Shown here one piece after another: positions 39,592-61,318 of a stretch of DNA of 64,000 bases. Both the position numbers and the translations under genes were made by a program. Within the stretch, counting starts at the first letter, position 1, and each line of letters begins with the position of its first letter. Source of the stretch: an uncultured Akkermansia sp. Lineage in GTDB: Bacteria > Verrucomicrobiota > Kiritimatiellia > RFP12 > JAAYNR01. A model generated the notes under the pieces. The model saw only the letters and a list, made by a program, of their open reading frames with translations, was not told the origin of the DNA and did no database searches. The stretch is from NCBI GenBank assembly GCA_964506575.1, contig CAZDLY010000002.1, positions 64,440 to 128,439 of the forward strand, in the 5' to 3' direction.

Positions 39592-39636
39592 GTGTGCCTC
39601 TCCCTCCATCCTGTTTGTCGCCATCATAGCAAACTA

Positions 39637-39659
39637 CGATTATGATTACGATTACGAAT
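39637..39659. repeat. Short tandem hexamer repeat GATTAY (gattat gattac gattac gaatc)
   Basis: Read directly in the intergenic region at the left island boundary. Confidence 0.7.
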
Positions 39660-39733
39660 CCAACGGAACTGCGGCAGCCCCCTACCCCGTTTATACTTGG
39701 GAATCATAATTGACATCACACTCAGTATGTGTT

Positions 39734-39750
39734 ACAAACATAGTGTTTGT
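39734..39750. promoter_or_regulatory. Perfect 7-3-7 palindrome ACAAACA-TAG-TGTTTGT (candidate operator) downstream of a TTGACA hexamer
   Basis: TTGACA lies at 39710-39715. The palindrome overlaps the expected -10/TSS region, 28 nt upstream of the ATPase ATG. Confidence 0.35.
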
Positions 39751-39777
39751 TAAACATAAGAGAGGTCATTCTTCTCC

Positions 39778-41151
39778 ATGACAGCGAGGTTTCTCAACAG
39801 GGATGATGAACAGAAGCGGCTGAAGCGGGCCATGAAAGCCCCTGGCGGCGCTCTGGCGGTCATTTACGGTCGGCGTCGCTGCGGCAAATCAACGCTCCTG
39901 CAGCGCGTGATCTCTGGCCCGGACGTGTACTATCTGGCTGACCAGAAAGAGCCGGCCCTGCAGATCCGCGATCTGGCCGCAGAAATCGACAAAACCGTGC
40001 CTCATTTTTCCTCTGCCGGTTATGCCACATGGGATTCCTTGTTGCTGAACCTCAATGATCGCCTGGATCGGCGAATCTCGCTGTGTCTCGACGAGTTTCC
40101 GTACCTTGCCCAAGTGTCGCCGGCTTTGCCCAGTATGTTGCAGAAGTATATTGATCGTCCTGGAATCAAGAGACTGAATTTGATTTTGTGCGGGTCATCG
40201 CAACGGATGATGCACGGACTGGTCCTGGATCGAACCGCGCCGCTTTACGGACGTGCACTCGAAATTCTAAAGATTGAACCCCTGCAGGCGGGCTGGATTC
40301 GCGACGGTCTGGGGCTTAAAGGCGAGAAAGCGGTCGAGTCCTATGCTGTCTGGGGAGGAGTGCCTCGCTATTGGGAATTGGCGTCGCCGTTCGCCGGGTT
40401 GGATGAGGCGATTCGCGAGCTGGTTCTGGATCGCAACGGGGTGCTCCACGAAGAACCGATGGGGTTGCTTTTGGACGACATGCGCAGTGCCGTTCAACCC
40501 TATTCCCTGTTGTCCGTCATCGGCCAGGGGTGTCACCGGCTATCCGAGATCGCCGGACGGCTTGGGAAGCCCGCCACGAGCCTGTTACGGCCTTTGATGC
40601 AACTTGCGGATCTGGGCTATGTGCGGCGGGAAACGCCATTCGGCGAGAATGAAAAGTCGACGCGGAGGACGCTCTACAAGATTCGGGATCCGTTTCTCTT
40701 GTTCCACTTCAGATTCGTACAGCCCAGCAAATCGCAACTTGAGGTCGGCGGAATCTCGGCGGTCGCGGCTAAAGTCAACAAACAGTTGTCGCTGCATGTG
40801 TCGGTTATCTGGGAGGAATTGGCCAGGGCCAGTGTTCCGCACTCCGGGATTGGCGGGTATGAATGGGGTCCGGCCCGCCGGTGGTGGGGGACTGGAAACG
40901 ATGGCGTACCAATGGAAGTGGACGTTGTGGCCGAGTCTCTGGATGGGAGCGCGGTCATGGTCGGCGAGGCCAAGTGGAACGATGCCGAAGTCCACCTCGG
41001 CGAGGCGAGAGCCCGGCTGGAGGCGGTGGCGAGGAACGCCCCATGGGCGCATGGGCGGATTGTGGTTCCGGTTTTGTGGGTCAAACGTGGCCGGCGAAGC
41101 CCAAACTTTCACATTCAGACGCCCGACGAGGTGCTGGATTGCCTCAAGTAA
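39778..41151 (+). CDS. AAA ATPase (archaeal-ATPase/ATPase_2-like) with wHTH and a C-terminal DUF234 PD-(D/E)xK-like domain
   Basis: Walker A GRRRCGKST, Walker B ISLCLDEFPYL and a winged-helix-like LSEIAGRLGKPATSLLRPLMQLADLGYV. The C-terminal PMEVDVVAE…VMVGEAKW carries a D…ExK nuclease-type motif. Confidence 0.8.
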   Translation: MTARFLNRDDEQKRLKRAMKAPGGALAVIYGRRRCGKSTLLQRVISGPDVYYLADQKEPALQIRDLAAEIDKTVPHFSSAGYATWDSLLLNLNDRLDRRISLCLDEFPYLAQVSPALPSMLQKYIDRPGIKRLNLILCGSSQRMMHGLVLDRTAPLYGRALEILKIEPLQAGWIRDGLGLKGEKAVESYAVWGGVPRYWELASPFAGLDEAIRELVLDRNGVLHEEPMGLLLDDMRSAVQPYSLLSVIGQGCHRLSEIAGRLGKPATSLLRPLMQLADLGYVRRETPFGENEKSTRRTLYKIRDPFLLFHFRFVQPSKSQLEVGGISAVAAKVNKQLSLHVSVIWEELARASVPHSGIGGYEWGPARRWWGTGNDGVPMEVDVVAESLDGSAVMVGEAKWNDAEVHLGEARARLEAVARNAPWAHGRIVVPVLWVKRGRRSPNFHIQTPDEVLDCLK

Positions 41152-41185
41152 TGAGTGATCCCTACGGCCAGCTTACAGGGGGAAT

Positions 41186-42028
41186 ATGTCAATAGTCTTG
41201 GTCAGCGTCGTTATTCCCACGCGCAACGAGGAGCACAATATTGCCTCCTGCATAGATGCGTTTCGGGGTGCCGTTGCCGAGGGCTGGTGTGAGGTTCTCG
41301 TGGTCGATAACTTTTCTGAGGACGGGACGGTTCAAGTGGCACGCGAGCGGTGTGCGCGAGCCTTCCAGCAGGGGCCGGAGAGAAGTGCCCAGCGTAACAG
41401 GGGGTGGGCCGAGGCGCAGGGAGAGTACGTTCTTTTTGTTGATGCGGACATGCGTCTGCCGTCTGAGACCCTTGAAGAGATCAGAACGGCGCTGTTTCGG
41501 CCTTCGCCCCCGGACGCCCTGTACATCCGCGAGAAACGTACGGGTGACAGTTGGTGGACGCGCGTGCGGAACTTTGAACGCAGTTTTTATGACGCAACCT
41601 GCATCGACGGGTTACGCGTCATTCGGCGCCCTCTCCTGCAGGCTGTTGAAGGGTTTGACGAGCGTCTTTTTGCCTGCGAGGACTGGGATCTGGACCGGCG
41701 CATCCTGGCGGTCACGCAACATGTGGCGCTGACCAAGGGCCATCTTCTTCATGACGAACAGCGGCTGACCTTCTGGCGGCATCTGCGCAAAAAACGTTAC
41801 TACGCCAAATGTTTCGACGCCTACATCAGCAAATGGGGACGTGACGCGGTCACACGTCGCCAGTTCGGTTTCTTTTATCGCTTTATCGGCGTCTTCCTTG
41901 AGAACGGAAAATGGCGACGGGCGCTTGCGCATCCTGTTTACCTGTTTGCCATTTGGGCAGAGCGGATTTGCGTTGGCGTCATCTATGTTGCCTCCCGGAT
42001 GTTGATGAAGCAACGTGCTTCTGACTGA
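41186..42028 (+). CDS. Glycosyltransferase family 2
   Basis: VSVVIPTRNEEHNI start and the DxD region FVDADM. Confidence 0.85.
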   Translation: MSIVLVSVVIPTRNEEHNIASCIDAFRGAVAEGWCEVLVVDNFSEDGTVQVARERCARAFQQGPERSAQRNRGWAEAQGEYVLFVDADMRLPSETLEEIRTALFRPSPPDALYIREKRTGDSWWTRVRNFERSFYDATCIDGLRVIRRPLLQAVEGFDERLFACEDWDLDRRILAVTQHVALTKGHLLHDEQRLTFWRHLRKKRYYAKCFDAYISKWGRDAVTRRQFGFFYRFIGVFLENGKWRRALAHPVYLFAIWAERICVGVIYVASRMLMKQRASD

Positions 42029-42045
42029 TTCTGTAACCCTTTCTT

Positions 42046-43206
42046 ATGGCGACACCAATAATGAAAGTAATTACCCGGCCTTTAGGTGTGCTTGTATTGT
42101 CTCAGACTTACCCGCCGGATGTGGGTGGGGTGGAAACGCACTTGTCTGATTTGACAGCAGCGTTTACGAAACATCCGGACTGGCGCGTCTGGATGGTTAC
42201 GTATAAGCCGATTGTCACGGATGTGAACACCTATCATTCATTCGAACAGCAGGGTAATGTGACCATCAGGAGATTCTGGTGGTTTGGCGGAAATCTTTTC
42301 CGCAAATTGGAACCCTGTCCACCTCTGATGTTCCTTTATATCGTACCTTACTTCATGTGTCGTCTGTTCTTCTACATCTTGCCGAGGATGAAAGAAATTG
42401 ATGTCATCCACGTCCATGGAATCAACATGGCCGTTGTAGGATGGGTCTTCGGCTCACTTTTTCATAAACGGGTTGTTTTTCAGTCCCATGCGCTTTATGC
42501 GTTCAAGCAGGGAAGTGCCTTCGCGAAAGTTGTCGCCTTTCTATTGAAGCGCATGAATGCGATCCTCGCGCTTTGCATGGCATCCAAGGAGGAATTCATC
42601 ACTCTTGGCGTACCGGCGGAACGGATTTCCGTTTACCGATACTGGATTGACTTGAAACGTTTCACCGCGAATGAGCGAACGCCAAACGATGTGTTCACGG
42701 CGTTTTTTGTGGGGCGCCTCATCGGTATCAAGGGCGAAGATTGGGTCATTGAATTGGCGAAGCGCTTTCCTGATATTCTATTTAAGATAGCGGGCGGCGG
42801 TCCCAACGAGAAGAAGGTCATTGCCGCCGCAAAGCAGATTGCCAACCTCGACTATCTTGGGCTTATTCCCAATAACCAACTGCACAATTATTATCGTACG
42901 GCGGATGTGCTGCTTGTCCCCTCACAATACCCAGAAGGTTTCGGACGTGTCATCTGCGAGGCGCTCGCCTGCGGCACGCCTGTCATCGCATCCAATATCG
43001 GTGGCATTCCCGATGCGATGGACAACACGGTCGGCGTGCTGTGTGATTTGGATATCGAGAACTTCGTAGCGGCATTGCTTCAGATGAGCGAAGATAGGGC
43101 CTGGCATCGGGCTTTGAAGGCGAATGCCCGCCTGTTTGCGGAGCGACAGTTCAGTGATCGGAATGCGGAGGCCATTATGCAAAGTGTGGAGGGTGAAAAT
43201 GTCTGA
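42046..43206 (+). CDS. Glycosyltransferase family 4 (GT-B)
   Basis: PPDVGGVETH N-terminal motif and C-terminal EGFGRVICEALACGTPVIAS motif. Confidence 0.85.
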   Translation: MATPIMKVITRPLGVLVLSQTYPPDVGGVETHLSDLTAAFTKHPDWRVWMVTYKPIVTDVNTYHSFEQQGNVTIRRFWWFGGNLFRKLEPCPPLMFLYIVPYFMCRLFFYILPRMKEIDVIHVHGINMAVVGWVFGSLFHKRVVFQSHALYAFKQGSAFAKVVAFLLKRMNAILALCMASKEEFITLGVPAERISVYRYWIDLKRFTANERTPNDVFTAFFVGRLIGIKGEDWVIELAKRFPDILFKIAGGGPNEKKVIAAAKQIANLDYLGLIPNNQLHNYYRTADVLLVPSQYPEGFGRVICEALACGTPVIASNIGGIPDAMDNTVGVLCDLDIENFVAALLQMSEDRAWHRALKANARLFAERQFSDRNAEAIMQSVEGENV

Positions 43207-43849
43207 TTCTGATTTTTACAACGAGTATTGGAAAGGCAATATACAGGGTGGCGTTTTAAATGAACCTCCGACTTGGACAGAGGATAACTTGAAATGGCAC
43301 CTGGATTATTTCAAACCGTTTTGTAACGGGGATGTTCTGGATATTGGTGCTGGAAACGGATGTTTTGTTCATGCTATCAAAGAACAAAACGCCAACATTA
43401 AGACCGCGACAGCGCTAGAACTTTCAACTGTCGCCATAGAGCAGGGCCAGAAAGCATTCCGAAACATACAATTCAGACAGGGAAGTTGTGATGACATCCC
43501 CTTCAGTGACGCAACATTTGACACTGTTTTTGCGATTGAGGTTGTTGAACATATTCTGGATATCGACAAATGTCTCTCCGAGGTGTATCGGGTACTAAGA
43601 CCCGGCGGTTATTTTGCCGTGACAACAACCGATTTTAACTGGCTTAAGCAAGTAGTAATCGCCATGTTCTTCTGGGAGAAGTTTTTTTATCCCAACAATC
43701 CACACATTCGGTTTTTTACCCGCAGAACATTGGCTGACCTTGCAAGAAAGCACGGATTAATCCCCGTCGCACATAAATGGAACAGAAGTTATTTTGGAAT
43801 CATGCCCAAAGGGCAGATGGCGGTATTTCAGAAAGAAGCATCCACATAA
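43199..43849 (+). CDS. Class I SAM-dependent methyltransferase
   Basis: VLDIGAGNGCF motif I and FDTVFAIEVVEHILD. The start at MSDSDFY overlaps the upstream gene by 8 nt. Confidence 0.85.
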   Translation: MSDSDFYNEYWKGNIQGGVLNEPPTWTEDNLKWHLDYFKPFCNGDVLDIGAGNGCFVHAIKEQNANIKTATALELSTVAIEQGQKAFRNIQFRQGSCDDIPFSDATFDTVFAIEVVEHILDIDKCLSEVYRVLRPGGYFAVTTTDFNWLKQVVIAMFFWEKFFYPNNPHIRFFTRRTLADLARKHGLIPVAHKWNRSYFGIMPKGQMAVFQKEAST

Positions 43850-43852: not shown

Positions 43853-44803
43853 TCAACGTGAATGTCCGAACAAATAACTGTTTTCTCCCATGTGTGTAAT
43901 CCGTTGCTCGACCCATGCCACATCCTCTCTTGTTTTCGTAAACCTTTCGAAAAACGCGACATTGTCAATTTCGTTAAATCGATACTGGTAGGCAATAAGA
44001 AAGTAGTTGATATTTATCAACAGCGGCACGAGTTGCTCTCGTATTGAGATTGGCGCTTCACTTAATGACCATGTTGCTATAAACAAACACTTTCCCGACT
44101 TCATGTTATATCCAAGAGCCCGCCGAAGTTGGTCCATATCCGAAACGCAAAGAACACCTCGGTCAGCCAAAAGAAATTCATCTAACGTCAGCACGGGTAA
44201 TCCAACTGTCTTAAGATAATAATTCTGTAGCGCAGAGAAAGCGGGAAGATCAAAAATAATATATTTCCCTGAGTATCCGAGCCGATGTACGAGCCGACAT
44301 AAGCAACCATAGCCTCCACCAAACTCAAAAATAACCTCCATATTTTGAATCTGTTGCTGAGTGTGATTTTCAAATGCAGAAACATGATATGCCAAGTGAA
44401 TAATATTTGTGCTGCTCCGTGGATAAAAGACGCATCGGATCGGATAACCTACGTCTGACTCTGCAATTGCTTCATACCAGCGTGATCTCCAGTCCACAAG
44501 AAAGCGTAGGCGGGCCAACTCCTTAAGGACATAAGGTTTGATGACAGGGAACATCGTATATAATACAACATCCCAGCGAAGAAACTTTCTTGGATTATCA
44601 TTTGTAACAAGATCTTTAAGGCGGTTCATGTTAGATAACCATTCCCGCTCCGAAGACTTCGGCAAATCGCCTATAGAAGTAAAAGGGATCGACTGAAAAG
44701 CATCTTTCAGTTCAGACAAGAACTGAGATTCCCTTTCTGTGGCAACCGGTAAACGGTTTGAACTAATTAGGCCGAGAAGTCGAATTATCAGTTTTCGGAT
44801 CAT
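43853..44803 (-). CDS. Hypothetical protein, possible methyltransferase-like (Gly-rich FEFGGGYG loop)
   Basis: 316 aa in a very low-GC stretch. It has a VIFEFGGGYGCLCRL…IIFDLP pattern resembling SAM motifs I/II. The family is not securely recognised. Confidence 0.45.
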   Translation of the reverse strand: MIRKLIIRLLGLISSNRLPVATERESQFLSELKDAFQSIPFTSIGDLPKSSEREWLSNMNRLKDLVTNDNPRKFLRWDVVLYTMFPVIKPYVLKELARLRFLVDWRSRWYEAIAESDVGYPIRCVFYPRSSTNIIHLAYHVSAFENHTQQQIQNMEVIFEFGGGYGCLCRLVHRLGYSGKYIIFDLPAFSALQNYYLKTVGLPVLTLDEFLLADRGVLCVSDMDQLRRALGYNMKSGKCLFIATWSLSEAPISIREQLVPLLININYFLIAYQYRFNEIDNVAFFERFTKTREDVAWVEQRITHMGENSYLFGHSR

Positions 44804-44808
44804 GTGAG

Positions 44809-45846
44809 TTATTCTCCCTTAAAAGAACCCGCATGGCGAATCATGGCTAGAAGTCGATATCGCTCAAAATACGGGAGACAAATCCATGATATGCTTTTCA
44901 ACATAGCATATCGTTTTTTCCTCAATAGTTCTAATAAGATCACTTGATGAATAGACCGTTTAATATCGCTGAACACCTCAATATCAACAGCGGCAAGCAA
45001 TTTTGACAAGTCAGCAAAAAGCGTTCTCGAACTCCTTCCACGCCCTCCGATCATGATGCAAACCTGTAAGAAACCAACAACGGATTGTAATAATAAAGAT
45101 TTTCGCTTCTGGTCAGGCACTCGATGCTTTTGCATGGCTGATGAAAGCGCCTTTATTGCTGTCAAAAAGTTGGCTACATATGAACTTGATACAGTGCGGG
45201 AAGTCGATTCTTGATTTTCACGTATGGCGTACAATACAACATCACAATACGCCCATGTCTTGACTTGATAAGCTAGTTCATACATGAATACAATGTCTTC
45301 GCCACCAGAAATTTCGGGTAGAAAGATGCCAATAACGGCTGCTGTCTTGAAAATACGTTGCCAAACAAAACAAGAATATTGGCCGCCTCCCAGTATAAAT
45401 TGCTCCGGATGAACGATAGAAACAGGTCGGACTTCTAATGACCGAACATCAATTACAGCAGGCTTGAATTTGCCGTAGTAGACGCGTGTCCGCTCAAAGG
45501 TCAGGATGTCGGCTTGGGAGGCTTCAATAAGGGTGAGGGCGACTTCAAAACATTGCGGATGCAGCCAATCGTCCTGATCGGCAAACATGATATACGGCGT
45601 TTTCACATTTGCCAGACCAACATTCCGAGCCGAGCCCGTCCCTCCATTTATTTTCGTTATAAGCTGGAACCTCGGATCGCGACTCATAAAATCGCGAATG
45701 ATGACTTCAGAATCATCCGTACTTCCGTCATTGACGCACAGGCAGGTCCACGCGGAATACGTCTGCGCACAAACCGTTTCCAGCAACTCCGCGAGATAAC
45801 GGCTCCCGTTATAAACAGGAACGATCACTGTTATTTGAGGCTGCAT
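44809..45846 (-). CDS. Glycosyltransferase family 2
   Basis: ITVIVPVYNGSRYL…VNDGSTDDS…FADQDD motifs. Confidence 0.85.
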   Translation of the reverse strand: MQPQITVIVPVYNGSRYLAELLETVCAQTYSAWTCLCVNDGSTDDSEVIIRDFMSRDPRFQLITKINGGTGSARNVGLANVKTPYIMFADQDDWLHPQCFEVALTLIEASQADILTFERTRVYYGKFKPAVIDVRSLEVRPVSIVHPEQFILGGGQYSCFVWQRIFKTAAVIGIFLPEISGGEDIVFMYELAYQVKTWAYCDVVLYAIRENQESTSRTVSSSYVANFLTAIKALSSAMQKHRVPDQKRKSLLLQSVVGFLQVCIMIGGRGRSSRTLFADLSKLLAAVDIEVFSDIKRSIHQVILLELLRKKRYAMLKSISWICLPYFERYRLLAMIRHAGSFKGE

Positions 45847-47015
45847 AGGTTCACCAGCACATCCGCCGCTGTTTTCCAGTCAAAGTTCTTCGCATACTCT
45901 CTGCCTTCACGAGAAAGCAGGGTTCTCTTTGGAGTGTCCCGGAGTAAATCCGTGATGGCGCACGCCATGGCGGCATTATCCAGATAAGGCACCTTGATGA
46001 CACCCTTTCGGTGATCCTGATAAATCGGCAGATCATACTCCACCACCGGAACCCCCAACGTGATCGCCTCCAGATAGACGATCCCGAAACTTTCGTGGTA
46101 GCTGGGAAACACAAAAACCCTTGATTGGCGTATGAGTTCGCACTTCTCGGCACCACGCTTAAAGCCGACGAGATTTATGGATGTGTCCAATCCAAGTGCG
46201 TTGATCTTGGCAATAACTCGTGATCCAACCGCATTGTGGTAATCACCGATTGCAACACACTTGAGATTGGGAAAACCCGATTGAACAATCCGATGCACAA
46301 CATCCACAAACTCCAAGATGCCCTTCTGTTCGTGAAACCGTCCCAAGAAACACACGTCATATTGCGGATCGGAAACAGGTTCGTGCCCGATCGCATACGC
46401 GGTTACTTCCGGATCCGCACAGTTGCTGATGATCGCCACATGCTGATTGTGTTTCTTCAAAACCGGCACATAGCCACTGTTCACACTAACCAATGCGTCA
46501 GCTTTTCGCTGCAGCACAAAAAAAACACGCTGACTCAGCCAGAAGTATAAGCCCCTGAGCGAGGGGACCGTCCATCTTCCCGGCACGAACTGCCATTTAG
46601 CTCCTTTGAAGGGGTTCGGCGCCAACATGTGGCAGAGCGCCAGCCATTTCATGTCTGGATTCTTCCGTTTCATCCAATAGGCGAACACTACGGACGGAAA
46701 GAAATCGGAATGAGAAATCATCACATGCTGTTCGTCCGGACTCAATCGTTTTACAAAACGCCGAGACTCCCACGTTCTGCAGACCCAGCTCGCCAGGATG
46801 CCGAAACGCTTTTCAACCGCATATTGGCCGATAACAACATAAGCGACATTGGCTCCTACCGCGCCATTCTTCCGAAACTCCTCTTCGCCGTGATCGGGCG
46901 TGTAAATAATATTCTGATGTGTCTTTCTCAACTCACCGATCAACCCCAGCATGCAGGTGTCACCGCCGGACCGCCCAAGGCCCGCTTTTGTGATTTCGAT
47001 GTGATGAAAAACCAT
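45831..47015 (-). CDS. Glycosyltransferase family 4 (GT-B)
   Basis: C-terminal FVFPSYHESFGIVYLEAITLGVPVV motif. Confidence 0.8.
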   Translation of the reverse strand: MVFHHIEITKAGLGRSGGDTCMLGLIGELRKTHQNIIYTPDHGEEEFRKNGAVGANVAYVVIGQYAVEKRFGILASWVCRTWESRRFVKRLSPDEQHVMISHSDFFPSVVFAYWMKRKNPDMKWLALCHMLAPNPFKGAKWQFVPGRWTVPSLRGLYFWLSQRVFFVLQRKADALVSVNSGYVPVLKKHNQHVAIISNCADPEVTAYAIGHEPVSDPQYDVCFLGRFHEQKGILEFVDVVHRIVQSGFPNLKCVAIGDYHNAVGSRVIAKINALGLDTSINLVGFKRGAEKCELIRQSRVFVFPSYHESFGIVYLEAITLGVPVVEYDLPIYQDHRKGVIKVPYLDNAAMACAITDLLRDTPKRTLLSREGREYAKNFDWKTAADVLVNLCSLK

Positions 47016-47041
47016 CGTGACCCTGCCTTTTGATCTTCCTC

Positions 47042-47710
47042 TCAGCGTTTAGGCTTCTTCGCCTCCATAATCAACGACTTTCCCAGACTCGGAAACCAAC
47101 GTGCCAGGCGCACACTTTTCAAGCGGCGCGAAGAAGTGAAATAGACAATATCCGATGTGCATCGACGAATCTCAAATCCGTGGCGCTTCAGAAAATCCTC
47201 CAAAGTGCTTCTAATAAAATAACGGACATGCCCCACCGCTGTCGGATCTGCCGGGCTGTTTTCAATATACGGATTGCGATTGCACAAAAGCAGCGCCCGG
47301 CGTCCCAGTGACGCGAGATTCGGTGTTGTGACAACGAGTGATCCTCCTGGACGAAGCACCCGCAAGATTTCCGTCGCGACATGATCAACATCGCCGACAT
47401 GTTCAATGACTTCCCCCGCAAAGACAACATCAAACGAAGCATCTGCAAAGGGGAAAACCGAGTTCAAGTCAGAGCACACGGCATTTAAACCACGCCCCCG
47501 TGCCTTTTCGACCGCAGGCCGAGACGCATCAATCCCCGACACACGATTTCCCTGTTTAATAAATAATTCACCAATCATGCCATCCAGGCAACCTAAATCC
47601 AACACATCACGATTTGTGCCGATCCAAGGAAGAATGACCGGAAAGCGAGGATCCGTAGTGTCGCACCAAGAATCGACATACTTTTTGCTGTTGAACGTGT
47701 ATGCATCCAT
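47042..47710 (-). CDS. Class I SAM-dependent methyltransferase
   Basis: VLDLGCLDGMIG motif I and FDVVFAGEVIEHVGD. Confidence 0.85.
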   Translation of the reverse strand: MDAYTFNSKKYVDSWCDTTDPRFPVILPWIGTNRDVLDLGCLDGMIGELFIKQGNRVSGIDASRPAVEKARGRGLNAVCSDLNSVFPFADASFDVVFAGEVIEHVGDVDHVATEILRVLRPGGSLVVTTPNLASLGRRALLLCNRNPYIENSPADPTAVGHVRYFIRSTLEDFLKRHGFEIRRCTSDIVYFTSSRRLKSVRLARWFPSLGKSLIMEAKKPKR

Positions 47711-49790: not shown

Positions 49791-49956
49791 TTGAATTTAC
49801 TTGATAGTGCCGAGATCTTCGGCCTTCTGCGGCTGCCTGACGTCGCCCGTCCAGCACACTGCTGAACTGAGACAGCAGGACACAAGCCAACCGTTTGGCG
49901 TTCATTGTACAGGAGGGGGTGGATAGAATCAACCACCGGTTCTCAATTTCTTTTCA

Positions 49957-49991
49957 CCCCGCTCCCCCCGGTCCCCCCGGCCCCCCCGCCC
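49957..49991. repeat. C-rich tract with C4, C6, C6, C7 runs (G-quadruplex-type motif on the minus strand)
   Basis: ccccgctccccccggtccccccggcccccccgccc, in the 363-bp divergent intergenic region. Confidence 0.8.
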
Positions 49992-50153
49992 GTTTTCCTT
50001 GTCCCGTCCTGCGTTACGGCAATGAACTGCCTGTACTGGCCCTCAAGCAGACAGGCTGCAATTGACAGATCGGCAAATCCTCGGAGTTCTTTTCCCTAAT
50101 TATCCGCGATATTACCAATTGCCTCAGGGGCTAAATTCGACTAATATGGGTAA

Positions 50154-53827: not shown

Positions 53828-54756
53828 GAACCATGCAGCCGATATCCCCCGTGCTAATCATGGCCTACAACAGGCCCAAGCAATGCGCAGCCGTCTTCGA
53901 GGCGCTGCGCATGCATAGGCCCCGGCAGCTTTTCTTTGCCGTGGACGGACCCCGGATATCCTGTTCGACCGACCGGGAAGCATGCCTGGCCACACGGGAA
54001 CTCGTCCGCTTGGTGGACTGGCCCTGTACCGTCCACACGTTCTTCCGCGAAACAAACCGGGGGTGCAAGCATGCCCCACCCGAAGCCATCAGTTGGTTCT
54101 TTGAGCACGTGCCGGCCGGAATCATCCTTGAGGATGATTGCGTGCCAACGGCAGATTTTCTTGCCTTCGCCAGCGAACTTCTGGACCGCTATTCCGCCGA
54201 CGAGCGCATCGGCATGATCAGCGGCAACAACCATTTCCGTTTTCAGACAGACCGCTCTGCGGCCTACCACTTTTCGCAACACGCCTCAATCTGGGGGTGG
54301 GCAACGTGGCGGCGGTCCTGGCAACTCTACGACATTGACATGAAACCTTATGTGACCAATCTAGCTTCCATTCGAGAGCGTCTGGGCCACTCTGAACGCT
54401 ATCGCGCCTACTGGTGGCGGTACGTTGAGGCGATACAAAAGGGCATGAATACTTGGGATATCCAATGGATGATTGCCTTGCGCGCAAACGACAGGCTGGT
54501 CATTCGACCGATCTGTAACCTGGTTTCAAATATCGGTTTCACGTCGGACTCAACACACACGACCTTCGAATATGGCGCCGACAACTACCTGCGCACGCAG
54601 TCGCTCACTTTTCCTCTTGTCCACCCACCCACCATCACCCTTGACGATTCCGCTGACCGGCAATACGAAGCGCGCGTCACCTCCTATTGGCGCCGCGGGT
54701 TGACGTTCGCTGGCTCCAGAACCAAAAACCTTGTAAGATGTGTTTTGGGCCACTAA
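53824..54756 (+). CDS. Nucleotide-diphospho-sugar transferase-like protein (GT-A fold candidate)
   Basis: VLIMAYNRP…FFAVDGP…IILEDDCVP (EDD motif). The family is not securely recognised. Confidence 0.5.
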   Translation: MRTMQPISPVLIMAYNRPKQCAAVFEALRMHRPRQLFFAVDGPRISCSTDREACLATRELVRLVDWPCTVHTFFRETNRGCKHAPPEAISWFFEHVPAGIILEDDCVPTADFLAFASELLDRYSADERIGMISGNNHFRFQTDRSAAYHFSQHASIWGWATWRRSWQLYDIDMKPYVTNLASIRERLGHSERYRAYWWRYVEAIQKGMNTWDIQWMIALRANDRLVIRPICNLVSNIGFTSDSTHTTFEYGADNYLRTQSLTFPLVHPPTITLDDSADRQYEARVTSYWRRGLTFAGSRTKNLVRCVLGH

Positions 54757-54807: not shown

Positions 54808-55857
54808 TTACGCAGACTGCCGTAATTCCTTAATGCGGTTAATAATCAGGCGGATCGTTATCAAGAAGTGGTGGCTAAAATGCTTCCTGGGTGTGCAAAA
54901 CTGCACAAGCAGCGAAATCGGATCTTTAGCAATAGCTGTTTGCTTGAACCACTTCCACCACACAATAAAATTCCTATGAGCAAGGCATCCCAGCGGATAC
55001 CAAGGTTTCGGCAACCCTGGAAAATGCAGAATGGTTCTTTCCATATCGATTGCACTGACCGCGTCATATTGTGGAAACAAAAGACGGTTCCAAGAATCGT
55101 CCAATGATTGGACACTGCCGCCGAGTACAAGGTTCAGCACAGTTTGGTCAGGACATAATAAAGAATCGTTTTCGAATTTCTTAAAATATAGCAAACAACA
55201 TGATTCGACCTGCATGACACGCCATTTTGCTAATGAAGCAAAGAAAATGCCGGAATGAAAATAATTGCAAGCCTGCTGCTCAGATGCGAGTGCAGCACTC
55301 AGAATGGCATAATCCGGAGAATGCTCTTGAAGAGAAGTCATATTTGCCATTATTGCTGAGTCATTATCGGTCAAACCGAGAAGTTCATTTACATCTCGCA
55401 AGACAAGCAAATCACAATCCAAATATAGACAATAATCGTAGTCTGAAAGAAGTGTTGCAAGAAATATTCTTGCGTTTGCCGTCATGTTCCCGTGAAACGA
55501 AGGAATACCGACAGGCCAAGAGATGGATAGTTCTTTAATCTCAAAAGTGTGAAAACTTCCCGACTTTGACACAGTCTGGAAGAGTAATCTCTTTTCGCGC
55601 TTCGTTAGTTTGTCAGAAAACACAATAACATGTAATGGCTTCGATTTGGCATAGTATAATAACGAAGCTAAAGCTGCATGTAGCCCACATAGCATCCATC
55701 GGTCTGAAAAAAACACGACCGTCAACTTTTGTTGATTGATATACACACGAAACTCCAAACTTTCTACACAATGAGCAGTGGTCACAGAACTACGCCAAAT
55801 GGTTGGATCTGGGCGGCACGCCTTACCATCCGCAACCCGCGTCGGTGGGCGATTCAT
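54808..55857 (-). CDS. Glycosyltransferase family 8
   Basis: VVFFSDRWMLCGLHAALASLL N-terminus, YLDCDLLVLRDVNEL DxD region and a later HFPGLPKPW motif. The start is uncertain because the first ~40 codons are GC-richer than the rest. Confidence 0.7.
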   Translation of the reverse strand: MNRPPTRVADGKACRPDPTIWRSSVTTAHCVESLEFRVYINQQKLTVVFFSDRWMLCGLHAALASLLYYAKSKPLHVIVFSDKLTKREKRLLFQTVSKSGSFHTFEIKELSISWPVGIPSFHGNMTANARIFLATLLSDYDYCLYLDCDLLVLRDVNELLGLTDNDSAIMANMTSLQEHSPDYAILSAALASEQQACNYFHSGIFFASLAKWRVMQVESCCLLYFKKFENDSLLCPDQTVLNLVLGGSVQSLDDSWNRLLFPQYDAVSAIDMERTILHFPGLPKPWYPLGCLAHRNFIVWWKWFKQTAIAKDPISLLVQFCTPRKHFSHHFLITIRLIINRIKELRQSA

Positions 55858-55940
55858 GCAGAAATCTGCTGCGGTGGCTCCTTAATCCGCTTATTGTGAG
55901 TATGCGACGCAACCGCTCATGATGCTTGATTCTCATGGGG

Positions 55941-56630
55941 CTAGCCCGGATTTGCTGTGTCATTACCGGTATCCAGAGAGTCCTGCCTCATGACCCAACC
56001 ATGCACGGTTTTCGCCAATCCGATACGGTCAAACCATACCATCGCATGCCGGAAGAGATCGTGCCGGGAACATGTTCGCCACGATTTCTCCTCGCACGAC
56101 CGATTGATTCGAATGTTCATCATGACATATTTGTCCGTTCTGACAACATGCTTCTCAAGCGGGTTCAGATGATCAAAGTACCTTTCGCTGATGTAGGCGC
56201 GATGCGTTTCCAGTGAGTTGCCATAGACCGCATTCTGGCTGACGTCAAATAAAGGCACAACCAGTATAATTTCATTGAACCATTTTCGTGCTTGGCGGAG
56301 TGTCTGGAAAATCTCACGCCTACTCAAATGCTCTAACACATCGCCAAAAATAGCGAGATCGTATTGCCGAGTGTTTGAGGCCAGCCACTCGCCGATTAAT
56401 GCACAGCAAGCCACATCATAATCCTTGTTCCGGCTCAAATACTCAGCGGTCTTCACAAAACCATCGACGGCCGTAATATGGCAGTCCTTGCCACGAACGG
56501 CACGTATGAGGCGCCCATATTTGCCCGCCCCCGCACCAAAATCAACGACGCGAGCCGGAGCCACGGACTGAATCTGGGCTTGAGATATGTAATCCAGTGT
56601 CGTATCGCTTGACCCCAAGTCTTGCACCAT
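55941..56630 (-). CDS. Class I SAM-dependent methyltransferase
   Basis: VVDFGAGAGKYG motif I and DLAIFGDVLEHL. The start at MVQDLG is preceded by GGAAGGAG. Confidence 0.8.
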   Translation of the reverse strand: MVQDLGSSDTTLDYISQAQIQSVAPARVVDFGAGAGKYGRLIRAVRGKDCHITAVDGFVKTAEYLSRNKDYDVACCALIGEWLASNTRQYDLAIFGDVLEHLSRREIFQTLRQARKWFNEIILVVPLFDVSQNAVYGNSLETHRAYISERYFDHLNPLEKHVVRTDKYVMMNIRINRSCEEKSWRTCSRHDLFRHAMVWFDRIGLAKTVHGWVMRQDSLDTGNDTANPG

Positions 56631-56634
56631 CACT

Positions 56635-58014
56635 TTACTCCTTCCGATGCGCCAACTCTCCGTGCCTCGATAGTCGTTGCGCCACAATCTGGGCACCCAT
56701 GCAGACCAGAACGGTCAGCGTGCTCCACAGCATCACACCCAACACAAACTCAAGTCTGGAAGGATTGAGCGCATCGACCCATCGGATCCAAGACGCAGGG
56801 ACCCATGGCGCGAAGAACGAAAACCCGGTGATCCCGTAAAGGAAAAGGGATTCGATCATCGTGATCGCGCCCGAATACCAGTAAAACCCAAAGCGGGCAT
56901 GTGCAATCTCATGAGACATAAAGCAGTTGATGGCGCTGCGCATGGCAATGATCACGGTCAGGAGGGCCAGATGCGGCGCAAAGGCCGCATAGGGACGCCA
57001 TGCGGGTGTCAGATTCAACAGCGGGCCGCCCCATAGCCGGAAAGCAAGCGCCAACAGGCTGCCAGCCAACAATGCGCCAGACATGCTCTGCAGGATCAGT
57101 TTGTGCGAGCGTTTACCCTTCTCGTGCTGTTCAGACGCCAGTGGGAACATGACCACCATCATGCTGAGGCCAACGTAGGCCCCCATCTCGGCAAACCGTG
57201 AGATCATGTAGTACCCCGCAGAGTCAAGATCGGGCAACCGGTGCCGGATGACGAAGGCCTCCACAAGGCCTTGCGGCATTCCGCAAAGACTCCCCAGCAA
57301 GACCGGCCATGCAAACCGCAACATGCTGCCTCCGTCCTCACGAAGATAGGGCATTGCCCTGAGTCGCTTGTTGAACAGGATCGTTCTGAGACCGAACAGC
57401 GCCGCCCCGATGCCGTAAAGTGTCGGCACGATCTGCCCGACAAAGTAGCCAGAGAGCGCGCGGATCGGCAGAACTATCAACAGGGTTACCAAACGCAAGG
57501 GCGCCCCAATCAGACTTGACAGAGACAACACCTTGAAGTGTTTCAACGCCTGCAAGGCGTTAGTAAAGAATGTCGATGCGATCCCCAACACCCCAGAAGC
57601 AACCACCAGCATACCCAAACGACCGTCGGCCACACGCATCCGCTCAAAGACCAATGGCAAGAAGAAACGGGCATAGAGCATCACCGCGAAGAAGAAAATT
57701 GCCGCGAGGCAAAACACATCTCTGAGCAGACTCTTGACCTTGCCATATTCACCACGTACGGCAAACAGGTTGACATATTTGATAAACACAACCGCAAGAA
57801 TCGAGAGAGGAAAAGCCAATACACTCCCCACCTGTGCCAAAGGCAAGAGTGCGCCCAACTCCTCCTGCGGCACATACTTCGGCACCAGCCACAGCCCGAT
57901 AAAGGCGTTGATGGCGTCGCCAAGCCGCTGCACGATAAAAAAAACGGCCGTGTACCACCAGAGATCGCCGAGGCGGAGCTTGATCATCGCGAATATGGAT
58001 TGGATATTGGTCAT
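56635..58014 (-). CDS. Wzx-like oligosaccharide flippase (MOP superfamily)
   Basis: About 460 aa with about 12-14 TM helices and an N-terminus typical of polysaccharide biosynthesis flippases. The start was chosen at MTNIQSIF. Confidence 0.7.
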   Translation of the reverse strand: MTNIQSIFAMIKLRLGDLWWYTAVFFIVQRLGDAINAFIGLWLVPKYVPQEELGALLPLAQVGSVLAFPLSILAVVFIKYVNLFAVRGEYGKVKSLLRDVFCLAAIFFFAVMLYARFFLPLVFERMRVADGRLGMLVVASGVLGIASTFFTNALQALKHFKVLSLSSLIGAPLRLVTLLIVLPIRALSGYFVGQIVPTLYGIGAALFGLRTILFNKRLRAMPYLREDGGSMLRFAWPVLLGSLCGMPQGLVEAFVIRHRLPDLDSAGYYMISRFAEMGAYVGLSMMVVMFPLASEQHEKGKRSHKLILQSMSGALLAGSLLALAFRLWGGPLLNLTPAWRPYAAFAPHLALLTVIIAMRSAINCFMSHEIAHARFGFYWYSGAITMIESLFLYGITGFSFFAPWVPASWIRWVDALNPSRLEFVLGVMLWSTLTVLVCMGAQIVAQRLSRHGELAHRKE

Positions 58015-58036
58015 ACCTTTCAGAATGTCGTAGTGA

Positions 58037-58549
58037 TCAATCAGCGGTTTTGTAAATTTTGAATTCGATCTCATCCGTGGGCAGGCCCAGCCCATCCCAT
58101 TGGTTGGGAGCGATATTTGCGAGTTTGTTGAATAACCACGCCACCAGTCGTTGGGGATAATGAAAATTCAATTTAATCGTTACGTCCTTGAATAGTTGTT
58201 TTCCGTTCCAGAGATAAGGGAAAGAACTTACCAGAAGTTGAGGTGTATAAACACTAAAGGCGTACTTGTGAAGATGCCAAATAGCCACAGGCGCCCGGAA
58301 ATGAGGGACTTTTGCATGAAAGAGTCCGTCAGGCTTTAAAACCCGATGAGACTCCTTAATTGTTTTTTCGAAGTCATCGACATGCTCCAACCAGTGCTCT
58401 GAAAAGATTTCGTCAACCGAGTTATCCTCCCAGGGCCAGGGAAATTGATTCAGGTCGCACCGGAAGTCGGGATCTCCAAAGAGGTCAACATTCAGATACC
58501 CCTCTTTTTTCTTTGACCCGCAACCCAAATGAAGCCGTTGAGTAGTCAT
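58037..58549 (-). CDS. Class I SAM-dependent methyltransferase (Methyltransf_11-like)
   Basis: LHLGCGSKKKEGYLNVD and VDEIFSEHWLEHV…LKPDG. Confidence 0.8.
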   Translation of the reverse strand: MTTQRLHLGCGSKKKEGYLNVDLFGDPDFRCDLNQFPWPWEDNSVDEIFSEHWLEHVDDFEKTIKESHRVLKPDGLFHAKVPHFRAPVAIWHLHKYAFSVYTPQLLVSSFPYLWNGKQLFKDVTIKLNFHYPQRLVAWLFNKLANIAPNQWDGLGLPTDEIEFKIYKTAD

Positions 58550-58565
58550 GTCATGTAACCTTTCT

Positions 58566-61061
58566 TTAACGCGGCTTGGCAAGCACTGCAAGACTACAGG
58601 CTAAAACCACCAGCAGGCTTGTTCCAAAAGAGAGCATATTCATCCAGCCGGCGAACCGGGTGCGACAGGTGACGGCGTGCCTCCCGGCCGGGACCTGCAG
58701 GGCGCACCAGATACCGTTGGCCTGATGCAGAGGCACTTCTTTGCCGTCAAGGGTGGCGACAAGGTCGGGTGAATAACGCTCATTCCAGATGAGCAGTCCG
58801 GGACGCGGAAGATCGACTTCTGCGCGGCTGACGAAAACACTTTTCGCGCCGCGCATCTGTTTGAACGGGACGCTTTGGGGTGGCTGATCGTCTGGCTTGA
58901 CCGGCGACGCCGCATCGGTGACGTGCAAGGCCTGGCCGGGCTGTATCAGTTGATCAATTTGTCTGTCCGGAGCGACATCGCCTGTCCAGTTGAAGTAGAC
59001 GCACGGAAAAGCGGACTGTTGACGTTCGAGAAGGATGATCGTCTGGGCGGAAGGAGTCGCTGTTTTTCGGACTCCGCCATTGCCGAAGTCGTACATGGCA
59101 ACCGGAACAGCGGCCTTTTGCTTGATGAGCGGTTCGGCCTGCTGGATCTGCAACAAGAGGAAGCGCACCCCCATGACGTCCCAGTGCCGCAGCGGATTAT
59201 TTTGGAAGGCGGAGGCGATCTGATATTCTTTCGTAGTCAAGTCGCCTTCAGTAGGAAGAATGGGGGTGATCCCATGTACATAGAAAGAGGTGTTCAACCA
59301 GTCCTGCAACCAGACATTACGCGTCACGTAGTTCGCCATGTGAGAAACCTGCTTGGCAGTCCTTTGTGATATTTCTCTTGTGACGGCGTTCTCCGCGTGG
59401 AAAGCCTGTAAATTGATCGGATTGACGTATCGCCGGGCGACCGCCGCGAGGTCAAAGACACCCACCAGCACAATGCCCGCGACAACCAACGAGATCCGGG
59501 CCGTGTTTTGCTGTTGCGCTTTCCAAAGATAAAGCAATGCCGACAAGCCGAGCGCCAGTCCGATCGCGCGCAGGCAGTTATAGGAGGTGTATCCGTGCAA
59601 TACGCCGGCGACTTGGCCCAGTCCAAGTGTGCGGATATGCGCTTCCATTCTGGGGCCGCTGACGAGAACAACCCATGCTATCAGGACCAACAAGACGATG
59701 AGACCGACCGAGCCGATCAGCATGCGCTTCTTTGCCTTATCGGAGAAGGGGGATGCCAATAAGGCTTGAAGGCCAAATCCGGCCAACAGCCCGGTCGCCA
59801 ATTCCGTAAAATGCAGGAATTTGACCGGGGCGCGCAGATAATCCATATAGGGGATCGCATAAAAGAGACGGTAGAAAGGGGTGTAGCGCCCTAACGCCAG
59901 AATCAGGCAGATAACCCAGACCACGCACCAGAAGGGGACGTCGGAGTAGACAGAGGGCAGGGATCGGAGGTCGGAGGTCGAAGGTCGGAGAGCGGCTGTG
60001 GGTGAAGGACGATTCTTTCGAAACGACAACCAGGCGAACACGCCGAAGAGTGCGAGCGTGATCGATACCAGACCCAGATAGATCGTATGCTGGCGGTAAT
60101 TGGGCATCATCCTGCCCGGCAGGAACGCGTGGGGTCGTCCCAGAGCACCCCAGTAAGGATAGGGGGGGCGCATGGAGTCATTGCCAAAAAAGCCGGGAAT
60201 GGCCAGTTCGATGCAGTCGGCTGGCGGAAGACTCCAGCCGGTCGCAAAGTCCCACCGCTCTTGCGAGTTTTTCTGGTTGATGTCGGTCTGCGGGCCGTCG
60301 GTTGCGGGACGAGTCGATTCGGCGATCTGTTTGTCACGGCCCGCAAGATGTTGCGTGAATACCGTATGGACGCTTCCGGCGCCAACCAGACCGGCTACCA
60401 GAAGCGTCAGCAAAAACTTCGGCAGGAGTTTCAGGAAAATCGGGCGAACCGACCAAAGCCGCTTCAGCGCGTAACAGGCCAGAATGAGTGCAAAGAGGAG
60501 CCAGACATCGGGTTGACCCGGCTGCGCCCACATCACAACGGCGCCCAACATCGCAAAGTGCCGGAGCTTCCCCTGCTCGATGCACCGGTTGAGCAATCCA
60601 AAGGACCAGAAGAAAATGCCCATGAGAAAGAAAAAGCCCATATGTCCCGCGCAAAATAGCGTGAATATGTACCCTGAAAAGGCCAGCAACAAGCCCGAAC
60701 CATATGCGGCCAGACGTTCAATCCGTAATGTCCTGAAGTAATAGACTCCAGAGAGCCCGAATAAGAACATGGCCACTATGTAACGCGCTTCATGGAATGC
60801 GATGGGAGGCAGGAAATTAACAAGTCCAAAAGGCGTGAACGGGGTCTTGCCTGAAAACCAGGCGTCTAGTAAGACGACCTGATAGTTCTGAAAGTAAAAA
60901 GGCGCATCATCGGGCGATGAAATACAGAGCCAAGGTTTGAAAACGTCGATAAAGACGAAAAGCATGGCGGCAGAAAAGACTGATAAAAAAAACAGGAATG
61001 TTTTGTTTCGTGTCAGCCAGGTGTTATTGCTTTGTTGAGTATGTGATGCTGCGGTATTCAT
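58566..61061 (-). CDS. Large polytopic membrane protein, YfhO-like GT-C glycosyltransferase candidate
   Basis: 831 aa. It has many N-terminal TM helices, a large C-terminal extracytoplasmic domain and a final C-terminal TM. That architecture matches the YfhO family as I recall it. Confidence 0.5.
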   Translation of the reverse strand: MNTAASHTQQSNNTWLTRNKTFLFFLSVFSAAMLFVFIDVFKPWLCISSPDDAPFYFQNYQVVLLDAWFSGKTPFTPFGLVNFLPPIAFHEARYIVAMFLFGLSGVYYFRTLRIERLAAYGSGLLLAFSGYIFTLFCAGHMGFFFLMGIFFWSFGLLNRCIEQGKLRHFAMLGAVVMWAQPGQPDVWLLFALILACYALKRLWSVRPIFLKLLPKFLLTLLVAGLVGAGSVHTVFTQHLAGRDKQIAESTRPATDGPQTDINQKNSQERWDFATGWSLPPADCIELAIPGFFGNDSMRPPYPYWGALGRPHAFLPGRMMPNYRQHTIYLGLVSITLALFGVFAWLSFRKNRPSPTAALRPSTSDLRSLPSVYSDVPFWCVVWVICLILALGRYTPFYRLFYAIPYMDYLRAPVKFLHFTELATGLLAGFGLQALLASPFSDKAKKRMLIGSVGLIVLLVLIAWVVLVSGPRMEAHIRTLGLGQVAGVLHGYTSYNCLRAIGLALGLSALLYLWKAQQQNTARISLVVAGIVLVGVFDLAAVARRYVNPINLQAFHAENAVTREISQRTAKQVSHMANYVTRNVWLQDWLNTSFYVHGITPILPTEGDLTTKEYQIASAFQNNPLRHWDVMGVRFLLLQIQQAEPLIKQKAAVPVAMYDFGNGGVRKTATPSAQTIILLERQQSAFPCVYFNWTGDVAPDRQIDQLIQPGQALHVTDAASPVKPDDQPPQSVPFKQMRGAKSVFVSRAEVDLPRPGLLIWNERYSPDLVATLDGKEVPLHQANGIWCALQVPAGRHAVTCRTRFAGWMNMLSFGTSLLVVLACSLAVLAKPR
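59954..59980. repeat. Heptanucleotide tandem repeat TCGGAGG x4 (one TCGAAGG variant) inside the YfhO-like CDS
   Basis: tcggagg tcggagg tcgaagg tcggag. On the minus strand it encodes …RPSTSDLRSL… in a loop. Confidence 0.8.
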
Positions 61062-61318
61062 GATTTTACCGATAAGGTGGGTATGACCAAACTGATGGTG
61101 ACAGGAGGCCTATCCGGGTTCCACGCGTTTGCCGGTGATAATATACTGCTTTTCATTGAAGATAAAGGCAAATCGTGCGTCCAAAATCCTGCGGGGTCGT
61201 TGAATATCTTGACATTTCAGCTCATCTTAATCACACTTCACCGCACGTATTTCGACGGAGTTGGTTTCCATGGCTGCACATAAGAGGACGTTCTCATCGT
61301 GATCCGCGTCCACAGAGC

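Follow-up and report, generated by a model that had tools for sequence, protein, structure and literature searches.

A strain-variable, low-GC glycan cassette from a Kiritimatiellia bacterium and its probable multi-component transmembrane glycosylation pathway

How might a surface glycan be assembled from a gene cluster that is rich in glycosyltransferases and methyltransferases and in which the usual enzymes for starting, polymerizing and attaching the chain are not recognized? The question is raised by positions 39666–61073 of a 64,000-nucleotide stretch of contig CAZDLY010000002.1, from an uncultured bacterium of the Kiritimatiellia. This whole stretch is called the window here, and all statements on the island refer to these 64 kb rather than to the whole genome. 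The original prediction, made from the letters alone, had described a methyltransferase-rich glycan island at 39628–61318. The island varies between strains and is exchanged horizontally; we consider it probable that it directs the synthesis of a surface glycan in its host, a Kiritimatiellia bacterium of the PVC group, and encodes a multi-component transmembrane glycosylation pathway. The cassette sits between a conserved O-methyltransferase gene and trkH.

The composition of the island sets it apart from its surroundings. Measured over 500-bp windows, the guanine-plus-cytosine (GC) content is 0.658 ± 0.036 for the 84 windows of the flanks but 0.510 ± 0.055 for the 42 of the island, 36 of which are poorer in GC than any flank window (Mann–Whitney p = 1e-19). 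The correlation of tetranucleotide usage with that of the left flank also falls, to 0.13–0.64 in the island from 0.96–0.98, and GC at third codon positions is 0.41–0.71 in island genes versus 0.76–0.86 in the flanking genes checked. Together, these measures bear out the discontinuity that had been predicted, with GC falling from 0.66 to 0.51 between about 39.7 and 61.1 kb. Inside the island, genes at 0.42–0.45 GC alternate with genes at 0.55–0.57; the low-GC patches noticed earlier are real, at 42–45% rather than about 40%. We then compared the window with metagenomic relatives. On the left, it is collinear with locus L012 over 30332–39665 (85–86% nucleotide identity), and on the right with locus L007 over 61074–63975 (89.7%), while between 39665 and 61074 neither relative has any match to it. 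Because collinearity ends at these points, the variable low-GC region can be placed at 39666–61073 independently of composition. The synteny breaks fit the earlier span almost exactly.

Close relatives carry other cassettes at the same position. In L007, TrkH, TrkA and the next gene share 89–96% amino acid identity with their counterparts in the window, but the GT-C glycosyltransferase and the probable flippase at the junction are only 37% identical, and the other genes found there (GT10, GT11, GT2, DUF268, Methyltransf_21/23 and DUF5672) are unrelated to those of the island. The left junction of L012 likewise leads into different genes, among them nucleoside diphosphate (NDP)-sugar genes. A more distant locus, L173, shows the reverse pattern. 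Nine island genes and the flippase are 45–79% identical to their L173 homologs, whereas BatD and its neighbor are only 42% and 32% identical; since the island genes are so much closer to L173 than the housekeeping genes are, the module has been transferred horizontally. The L173 cluster lies at another chromosomal site, after the bat operon, with the module genes in a rearranged order, and it includes a GT9 heptosyltransferase. Cassette replacement, the shared nine-gene module, its rearranged order and the GC mosaic all agree with the idea that the island was acquired in pieces.

These comparisons also bear on whether the locus could be native and vertically inherited, its low GC reflecting local selection or mutation bias without transfer. 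Low GC is a trait of polysaccharide loci in many genomes, and marks of mobile elements are missing here: we found no tRNA, no meaningful direct repeats at the borders and no integrase family among the island open reading frames (ORFs). However, both borders are synteny breaks against relatives that are 85–90% identical in nucleotides, the island genes are far closer to those of a distant organism than their housekeeping neighbors are, and the L173 module occupies a different chromosomal site, all of which makes a native origin very improbable. Cassettes were most likely exchanged by recombination between conserved flanking sequences, as in O-antigen loci. An Rfam scan returned no family, and a tblastn search with the flippase and the 831-residue GT-C against 72,556 plasmids gave no match. 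A haloarchaeal Agl island, suggested by the 65% GC and an 'archaeal' ATPase_2 protein, was considered and ruled out, as the encoded proteins are not acidic (pI 6–10); homologs with named organisms also come almost entirely from Kiritimatiellia, Lentisphaerae and other metagenome-assembled genomes (MAGs) of the PVC group. An exact-sequence look-up of TrkA for sister strains found nothing on record.

What, then, does the cassette encode in the membrane? Three membrane proteins, of 831, 668 and 486 residues, have no match by sequence in Pfam, NCBIfam or PDB. For the two largest, AlphaFold2 models searched with Foldseek show the GT-C fold, in line with the earlier view that they are GT-C-like. The 831-residue protein (58566..61061, minus strand; 799 residues as called) was modeled with a pLDDT of 86.6, and Foldseek aligned it to ArnT (5.6e-6), AftD, STT3, PglB and ALG12. 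The 668-residue protein (47784..49790, minus strand; pLDDT 83.9) matches EmbC/EmbB, STT3, PglB, ALG12/9 and AftA. TM-scores for these GT-C matches are modest (0.3–0.5). The presence of two GT-C enzymes supports the earlier suggestion that assembly is partly periplasmic.

In the model of the 831-residue protein, an N-terminal helical module is followed by a beta-rich domain, predicted to lie outside the cytoplasm, and by one last helix at the C terminus. All 33 family sequences compared share an aspartate, D51, in the first loop. Pfam YfhO (PF09586) matches 10 of these 33 members weakly (best E 0.004) and is the sole family matched by more than one of them, which is why we assign the family as distantly YfhO-like; the window protein itself has no YfhO match at E ≤ 10, and it would be at best a distant relative. 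The family has at least 690 homologs, and those with organism names belong to the PVC group, mostly Kiritimatiellia, with two labeled otherwise. Among 80 genome matches, nearly all labels are again PVC-group (Kiritimatiellia, Lentisphaerae, 'Verrucomicrobia'), with a few others. The closest is only 55% identical, and the source species therefore has no representative genome in that collection.

Gene neighborhoods link this GT-C to the probable flippase. In 15 of 38 close genome loci, the distance from the 831-family gene to a flippase-family gene is at most 2.7 kb, and the two are also neighbors in L007, L009 and L010; variable GT4 and methyltransferase genes often stand between them. In other genomes, the 831-family gene is accompanied by a GtrA-like gene, a GT2 or a family-2 O-methyltransferase. 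GtrA-like genes adjoin homologs in L006 and L011, and in L006 the GtrA-like gene immediately precedes the GT-C gene. In L024 (7563–11029), from a Kiritimatiellaeota MAG, the GT-C gene is directly upstream of a family-2 O-methyltransferase homolog with nothing between them, unlike in the window, where the corresponding genes bracket the whole 21-kb island. The GT-C and flippase locus of L010 (13957–22529) contains two radical-SAM genes (one B12-binding), a Methyltransf_14-containing methyltransferase, a thiamine pyrophosphate enzyme and NeuB, a set that points to sugars of the C-methylated or nonulosonic-acid kind there.

The 668-residue protein belongs to a much smaller family: a search of 1.84 billion proteins yields just 25 representative clusters at E ≤ 1e-30. 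Two acidic residues after the first transmembrane (TM) segment, D31 and E32 ('WCDE'), are near-invariant (at least 90% of the family). No direct match to Pfam PMT_2/ArnT-like (PF13231) was found, but the family profile reaches proteins of about 500 residues at E 1e-12 to 1e-4, of which 33 of 40 are Pfam PMT_2 members, and the W-x-D-E motif of the first loop is common to both sets. Through these intermediate sequences, the protein appears to be a distant relative of PMT_2/ArnT. Its C-terminal beta-sandwich matches CBM6-type carbohydrate-binding modules (CBMs) by Foldseek, which suggests that the acceptor is a glycan.

Divergently transcribed from this GT-C gene is that of a 233-residue GT2 (50154–50855, plus strand), the two lying back to back across a 363-bp intergenic region (49791..50153) with weak promoter-like matches to consensus. 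The GT2 has no predicted TM segment and carries a DXD-type motif (DAD, 91–93). It resembles polyprenyl-monophosphate sugar synthases of the DPMS/ArnC/GtrB/AglJ/PpgS type: the best PDB match is Pyrococcus DPMS (5mlz, 3.9e-23), which covers residues 1–213 and so the whole catalytic domain, followed by ArnC and GtrB, and the top NCBIfam matches (AglJ at 2.9e-30, then PpgS, ArnC and PgfS) are all polyprenyl-monophosphate glycosyltransferases. The pairing recurs elsewhere. In L173, a 73%-identical homolog is likewise divergently adjacent to a 668-type GT-C despite a different gene order around them, and in L159 the homolog directly follows a short 831-family paralog. An enzyme of this kind can provide the GT-C enzymes with lipid-linked donors, or it can start a glycan on polyprenyl monophosphate in the way of lactococcal WpsA; WpsA and GacI also lack a TM helix (PMC10821137). 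The earlier statement that the island has no priming transferase thus holds for enzymes of the WbaP/WecA phosphoglycosyltransferase type only, because this GT2 resembles polyprenyl-phosphate glycosyltransferases and may itself prime.

The third membrane protein, of 486 residues (56635..58095, minus strand), has 12 hydrophobic segments with short loops and no large loop. Its family comprises 765 homologs, and 24 of the 120 listed are named 'O-antigen/teichoic acid export membrane protein' by the Joint Genome Institute (JGI). It is a probable MOP/Wzx-type flippase. Alignment of the family with hhalign to single E. coli WzxE or WzyE sequences was uninformative, and an internal repeat between the N- and C-terminal halves of the protein was looked for and not found.

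The soluble enzymes are arranged in the four alternating blocks that had been described (41186–43849 plus, 43853–49790 minus, 50154–54756 plus and 54808–61061 minus), each with at least one methyltransferase gene. The first opens with a 280-residue GT2 (41186..42028; Pfam Glycos_transf_2, 2.3e-19). A role for this GT2 as a second polyprenyl-phosphate synthase is not supported, its PDB matches being confined to the generic N-terminal part of the GT-A fold. It is followed by a 386-residue GT4 (42046..43206; Glycos_transf_1 and Glyco_transf_4), with a 70%-identical homolog in L173 and another directly after the GT-C in L105, and by a class I S-adenosylmethionine (SAM) methyltransferase (43124..43849; Methyltransf_11, 6.8e-22).

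The second block is read on the minus strand. Besides the 668-residue GT-C, it holds a putative NanM-like sugar O-methyltransferase of 316 residues (43853..44803; TIGR04371, 2.3e-10; 59% identity to L173), a 345-residue GT2 (44809..45846; Pfam 4.3e-30; 60%) whose NCBIfam matches are lipopolysaccharide (LPS)- and exopolysaccharide-type GT2 families, a 394-residue GT4 (45831..47015; Pfam; 63%) and a class I SAM methyltransferase (47042..47710; Methyltransf_11, 2.5e-20; 68%). The NanM-like protein scores 40.5 bits against a TIGR04371 cut-off of 44 and has methyltransferase motif I (FEFGGGYG), making it the probable sixth class I methyltransferase. A PDB sequence search with this protein returned no helpful match.

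In the third block, on the plus strand, the 233-residue GT2 is followed by a 355-residue GT4 (50899..51966; weak Pfam match; 79% identity to L173), homologs of which sit between GT-C and flippase in L111 and L129. A 351-residue GT4/GT1-type enzyme comes next (51963..53018; Glycos_transf_1, 1.6e-10), recognized in its C-terminal half alone, and then a class I SAM methyltransferase (53015..53827; Methyltransf_23, 5.9e-15). The block ends with a 310-residue candidate GT-A-like glycosyltransferase (53824..54756; L173 homolog 59% identical). This protein has no Pfam, NCBIfam or PDB match; its 'LEDD' motif (within 'ILEDDCVP') is possibly compatible with a GT-A fold.

The fourth block, on the minus strand, carries the flippase and 831-residue GT-C genes together with a 349-residue GT8 that resembles LPS alpha-galactosyltransferases (54808..55857; Glyco_transf_8, 1.5e-24; NCBIfam PRK15171 at 9.6e-17, below cut-off) and two class I SAM methyltransferases. 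One (55941..56696; weak Methyltransf_12/23 match) has a homolog directly after the flippase in L115. The other is small (58037..58591; Methyltransf_11 over the C-terminal part). Its 184-residue ORF is intact, with motif I (LHLGCG), which rules out a truncated or pseudogene methyltransferase; translation probably starts at M15, giving about 170 residues, the length reported by gene callers.

This inventory agrees closely with the original prediction. Pfam and NCBIfam searches recover its soluble glycosyltransferases (three GT2, four GT4/GT1-type and one GT8, with the 310-residue GT-A-like protein as the ninth by motif) and its five clear methyltransferases, and the sixth, then called possible, is the 316-residue protein with motif I and a sub-cut-off NCBIfam score. 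The methyltransferase load had been thought unusual, and so it is: by an ad hoc hidden Markov model, the island has 2.3 class I methyltransferases per 10 kb, compared with 0.35 in 38 related close loci and 0.17 in control loci. The density in L105 is comparable to that of the island.

From these components, a pathway can be proposed. Eight or nine soluble glycosyltransferases would assemble an oligosaccharide at the cytoplasmic side of the membrane, with polyprenyl phosphate as the carrier, and the six SAM methyltransferases would methylate it. The 233-residue GT2 would make a polyprenyl-monophosphate sugar, the donor for the adjacent PMT_2-related 668-residue GT-C, and possibly also prime the oligosaccharide, as WpsA and AglJ do. 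The 12-helix, MOP-like 486-residue protein would then flip the lipid-linked intermediate. In the periplasm, the 668-residue GT-C with its CBM-like domain may add a sugar to a glycan acceptor or extend it, and the YfhO-like 831-residue GT-C may transfer the product to the final acceptor, perhaps LPS core. The two GT-C enzymes would thereby fill the roles that Wzy and WaaL have elsewhere. LPS core as acceptor is hinted at by the resemblance of the GT8 to LPS alpha-galactosyltransferases and by the GT9 heptosyltransferase of L173. A cytoplasmic polymethylated polysaccharide of the mycobacterial MGLP/MMP type is unlikely, given the flippase-like protein and the two extracytoplasmic transferases.

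How complete is the set of genes on which this pathway is built? Families for Bac_transf/WecA-type initiating enzymes, Wzy/WaaL, Wzz, ABC exporters and NDP-sugar synthesis have no Pfam or NCBIfam match on any island ORF, as had been predicted for Wzy, Wzz, WaaL, ABC exporter and NDP-sugar genes. In the loci whose gene calls were annotated with Pfam, neither Wzy/WaaL-like nor phosphoglycosyltransferase genes turned up within 10 kb. A phmmer search of 7270 six-frame ORFs (at least 80 residues in the window) over 2.1 Mb, comprising the window and all related loci, returned no match to E. coli WecA, WcaJ, WbbH or WzyE. Several points nevertheless weigh against our reading. The phmmer search for phosphoglycosyltransferases used E. 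coli queries only, with no positive control, and with 64 kb of genome in view, a phosphoglycosyltransferase, Wzy or WaaL could lie elsewhere. The 233-residue GT2 scores below every curated NCBIfam (equivalog) cut-off, and no ORF for a small membrane partner like GacJ or WpsB is found in the island, although a partner could also lie elsewhere. Pfam matched no MOP model (Polysacc_synt, MurJ, MATE) on 34 members of the 486-residue family, and a PDB profile search of that family gave spurious matches and no MOP protein where WzxE or MurJ structures were expected; the assignment draws on topology, gene context and JGI names. The Wzx-like flippase that had been proposed thus fits by its 12 segments, its glycan-cluster context and its names, and is probable rather than proven. 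The pairing of GT-C and flippase genes, at 15 of 38 close loci, is common and not universal.

With these points in mind, we considered whether the island is instead part of a classical Wzx/Wzy O-antigen or capsule cluster, with the initiating enzyme, Wzy, WaaL and NDP-sugar genes elsewhere and with the GT-C enzymes and the 233-residue GT2 adding side-branch sugars after polymerization, in the manner of Gtr-type or three-component systems. Known PMT_2-like and YfhO-like GT-C families do move single sugars from polyprenyl-phosphate donors (PMC8035078, PMC11127046). Furthermore, GtrA-like genes stand beside 831-family homologs in L006 and L011, the NDP-sugar genes that the island lacks occur in related loci, the L173 heptosyltransferase points to LPS, and only 64 kb of the genome is in view. 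However, the 831-residue GT-C and the flippase form the conserved core of these loci rather than accessories, Wzy/WaaL-like and phosphoglycosyltransferase genes were found neither within 10 kb in the Pfam-annotated loci nor by phmmer among the 7270 ORFs, and a single lipid-sugar synthase serves two GT-C enzymes. We regard a classical cluster as possible but rather unlikely.

A different acceptor is raised by the neighborhoods of the closest homologs. In L006 (827–12496) and L009 (391–12490), 55%-identical homologs of the 831-residue GT-C lie beside type II secretion or pilin-like genes (T2SSE, Secretin and N_methyl prepilin-type), a hint that pilins could be the acceptor. The 831-residue GT-C would then be an oligosaccharyltransferase comparable to PglB, AglB or TfpW, and would pass the flipped, methylated oligosaccharide to pilins, pseudopilins or other envelope proteins. 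STT3 and PglB are among its Foldseek matches, AglJ, the archaeal N-glycan priming enzyme, is the top NCBIfam match of the 233-residue GT2, and TfpW offers a precedent as a reported GT-C pilin glycosyltransferase (bioRxiv 10.1101/2020.04.19.049825). Nevertheless, neither GT-C family (33 and 15 members) has a Pfam STT3 domain or a WWDYG-type motif (WW[DE][YFW]G), the best fold match of the 831-residue protein is the lipid-modifying enzyme ArnT, the CBM-like domain of the 668-residue protein suggests a glycan acceptor, and the pilin neighborhood is confined to one subclade. Protein glycosylation is therefore an improbable function for the locus, and a transmembrane pathway that builds a probably methylated surface glycan is the account we prefer. 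More broadly, and quite tentatively, Kiritimatiellia may attach methylated, variable oligosaccharides without Wzy or WaaL, by DPMS-like priming, flipping by a highly divergent MOP protein, and polymerization and ligation by two unannotated GT-C families, of which the YfhO-like one is lineage-wide and the PMT_2-related one rare; this generalization could well prove wrong.

The genes around the cassette are of other kinds. The left flank ends with the family-2 O-methyltransferase (38578..39627, minus strand; Pfam Methyltransf_2 and Dimerisation; GC 0.65), 88% identical to its L012 counterpart; it lies just outside the border, as predicted, since L012 is collinear up to 39665. Just within the variable region is an ATPase (39778..41151, plus strand; Pfam ATPase_2 and DUF234 with a winged helix-turn-helix; GC 0.59) that is not glycan-related and may be a regulator or a remnant of exchange. 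Fragments of an ATPase_2/DUF234 homolog are found at the edge of the GT-C, methyltransferase and flippase locus L105 (910–1314). On the right, the conserved flank contains a 66-residue ORF called by gene finders (61083–61283, plus strand), between the GT-C gene and trkH. TrkH (61175..62698, plus strand; TIGR00933, 2.4e-99) follows, with TrkA next at 62732–63400. The TrkH ORF as listed (507 residues, GTG start) probably includes some 48 residues too many, judging by the 459-residue L007 homolog.

Further upstream, the genes scanned at 12–38 kb are mostly housekeeping, including Rnf genes, and no polysaccharide-synthesis family was found among them. A histidine kinase and a sigma-54 response regulator (12187–14885) precede a Gld-like ABC system (14955–19483, plus strand; ABC_tran, ABC2_membrane, ABC_transp_aux/GldG-like and DUF4340), and an operon of the Bat 'aerotolerance' type follows (18916–29448, plus strand; MoxR (AAA_3), DUF58, VWA, VWA and BatD). 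In L173, the homologous glycan module comes immediately after such a Bat-type operon rather than beside trkH. The hexapeptide protein at 30480–31568 (plus strand) was considered as LpxD, and hence as evidence for LPS, and this was wrong. Residues 154–359 instead form a Vat/streptogramin-A-type xenobiotic acetyltransferase (PDB 4hur, 1.6e-62), with the true start probably near 30940. This enzyme of an environmental PVC bacterium may thus modify antibiotics.

How does the cassette compare with known systems? A low-GC, strain-variable surface-glycan cassette is a well-known kind of feature. New here are the lineage, the two GT-C families and the flippase family unrecognized by current libraries, the high methyltransferase load, and a set of enzymes in which a polyprenyl-monophosphate synthase and GT-C proteins apparently stand in for a phosphoglycosyltransferase, Wzy and WaaL. 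Kiritimatiellia, most of which are uncultured, occur commonly in guts, sediments and lakes, and we found no published account of their surface-glycan biology, of which this locus provides a concrete model. Two GT-C families missed by current domain libraries are now defined, with at least 690 homologs and about 25 representative clusters, respectively. The swappable cassette probably underlies strain-level differences in susceptibility to phages and predators.

The closest parallels are in Gram-positive bacteria. In the lactococcal polysaccharide-pellicle (PSP) pathway, the TM-less GT2 WpsA makes GlcNAc-P-C55, soluble glycosyltransferases elongate it, a Wzx-type flippase exports the product, and two GT-C enzymes polymerize and attach it (PMC10821137). 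The island shares with this Wps system and with streptococcal GacIJKL (PMC10821137) a TM-less GT2 of about 230 residues with a DPMS-like domain, which in those systems makes sugar-P-C55, together with soluble elongating glycosyltransferases in the cytoplasm, a Wzx-type flippase and two finishing GT-C enzymes outside the membrane, roles that its genes suggest here; as in Wps, the glycosyltransferase content varies between strains. Unlike those systems, the host belongs to the PVC group and is presumably diderm, the island has no WpsB/GacJ-like activator gene, its GT-C enzymes and flippase are too divergent for the corresponding Pfam families, and it carries six methyltransferases.

Multi-component transmembrane glycosylation systems have been reviewed (PMC8035078), and in the Citrobacter GT136 system, a CBM-bearing GT-C works with a MOP-superfamily (MATE) flippase on polyprenyl-phosphate monosaccharide donors (PMC11127046). 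Like these and other three-component systems (GtrABC, ArnC/ArnT and CsbB/GtcA/YfhO), the island pairs a polyprenyl-phosphate sugar synthase-like protein with a GT-C that has a C-terminal carbohydrate-binding-like domain and an acidic motif in the first extracytoplasmic loop; the flippase is of the MOP/MATE or GtrA type in such systems. It differs in having eight or nine soluble glycosyltransferases rather than a three-gene add-on, in its two GT-C enzymes and in the lack of a GtrA gene.

Enterobacterial O-antigen clusters are low-GC serotype cassettes flanked by galF and gnd. The island resembles them as a low-GC cassette between conserved flanks, in the replacement of the whole locus in close relatives, and in membrane-protein genes that are deeply divergent between cassettes (37% identity here), but it is methyltransferase-rich, with GT-C enzymes instead of Wzy and without NDP-sugar genes. 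In the Agl N-glycosylation system of Haloferax volcanii, the GT2 AglJ primes on polyprenyl monophosphate, soluble glycosyltransferases elongate, the methyltransferase AglP modifies, AglR is a MOP-type flippase candidate and a GT-C enzyme makes the final transfer. Although the host here is bacterial and the island GT-C enzymes lack STT3 signatures, the same kinds of component are present: an AglJ-like GT2, soluble glycosyltransferases, methyltransferases, a MOP-type flippase candidate and GT-C enzymes. If phosphoglycosyltransferase, Wzy and WaaL are indeed not needed, a logic of glycan assembly known from archaea and Gram-positive bacteria would be at work in a diderm lineage as well.

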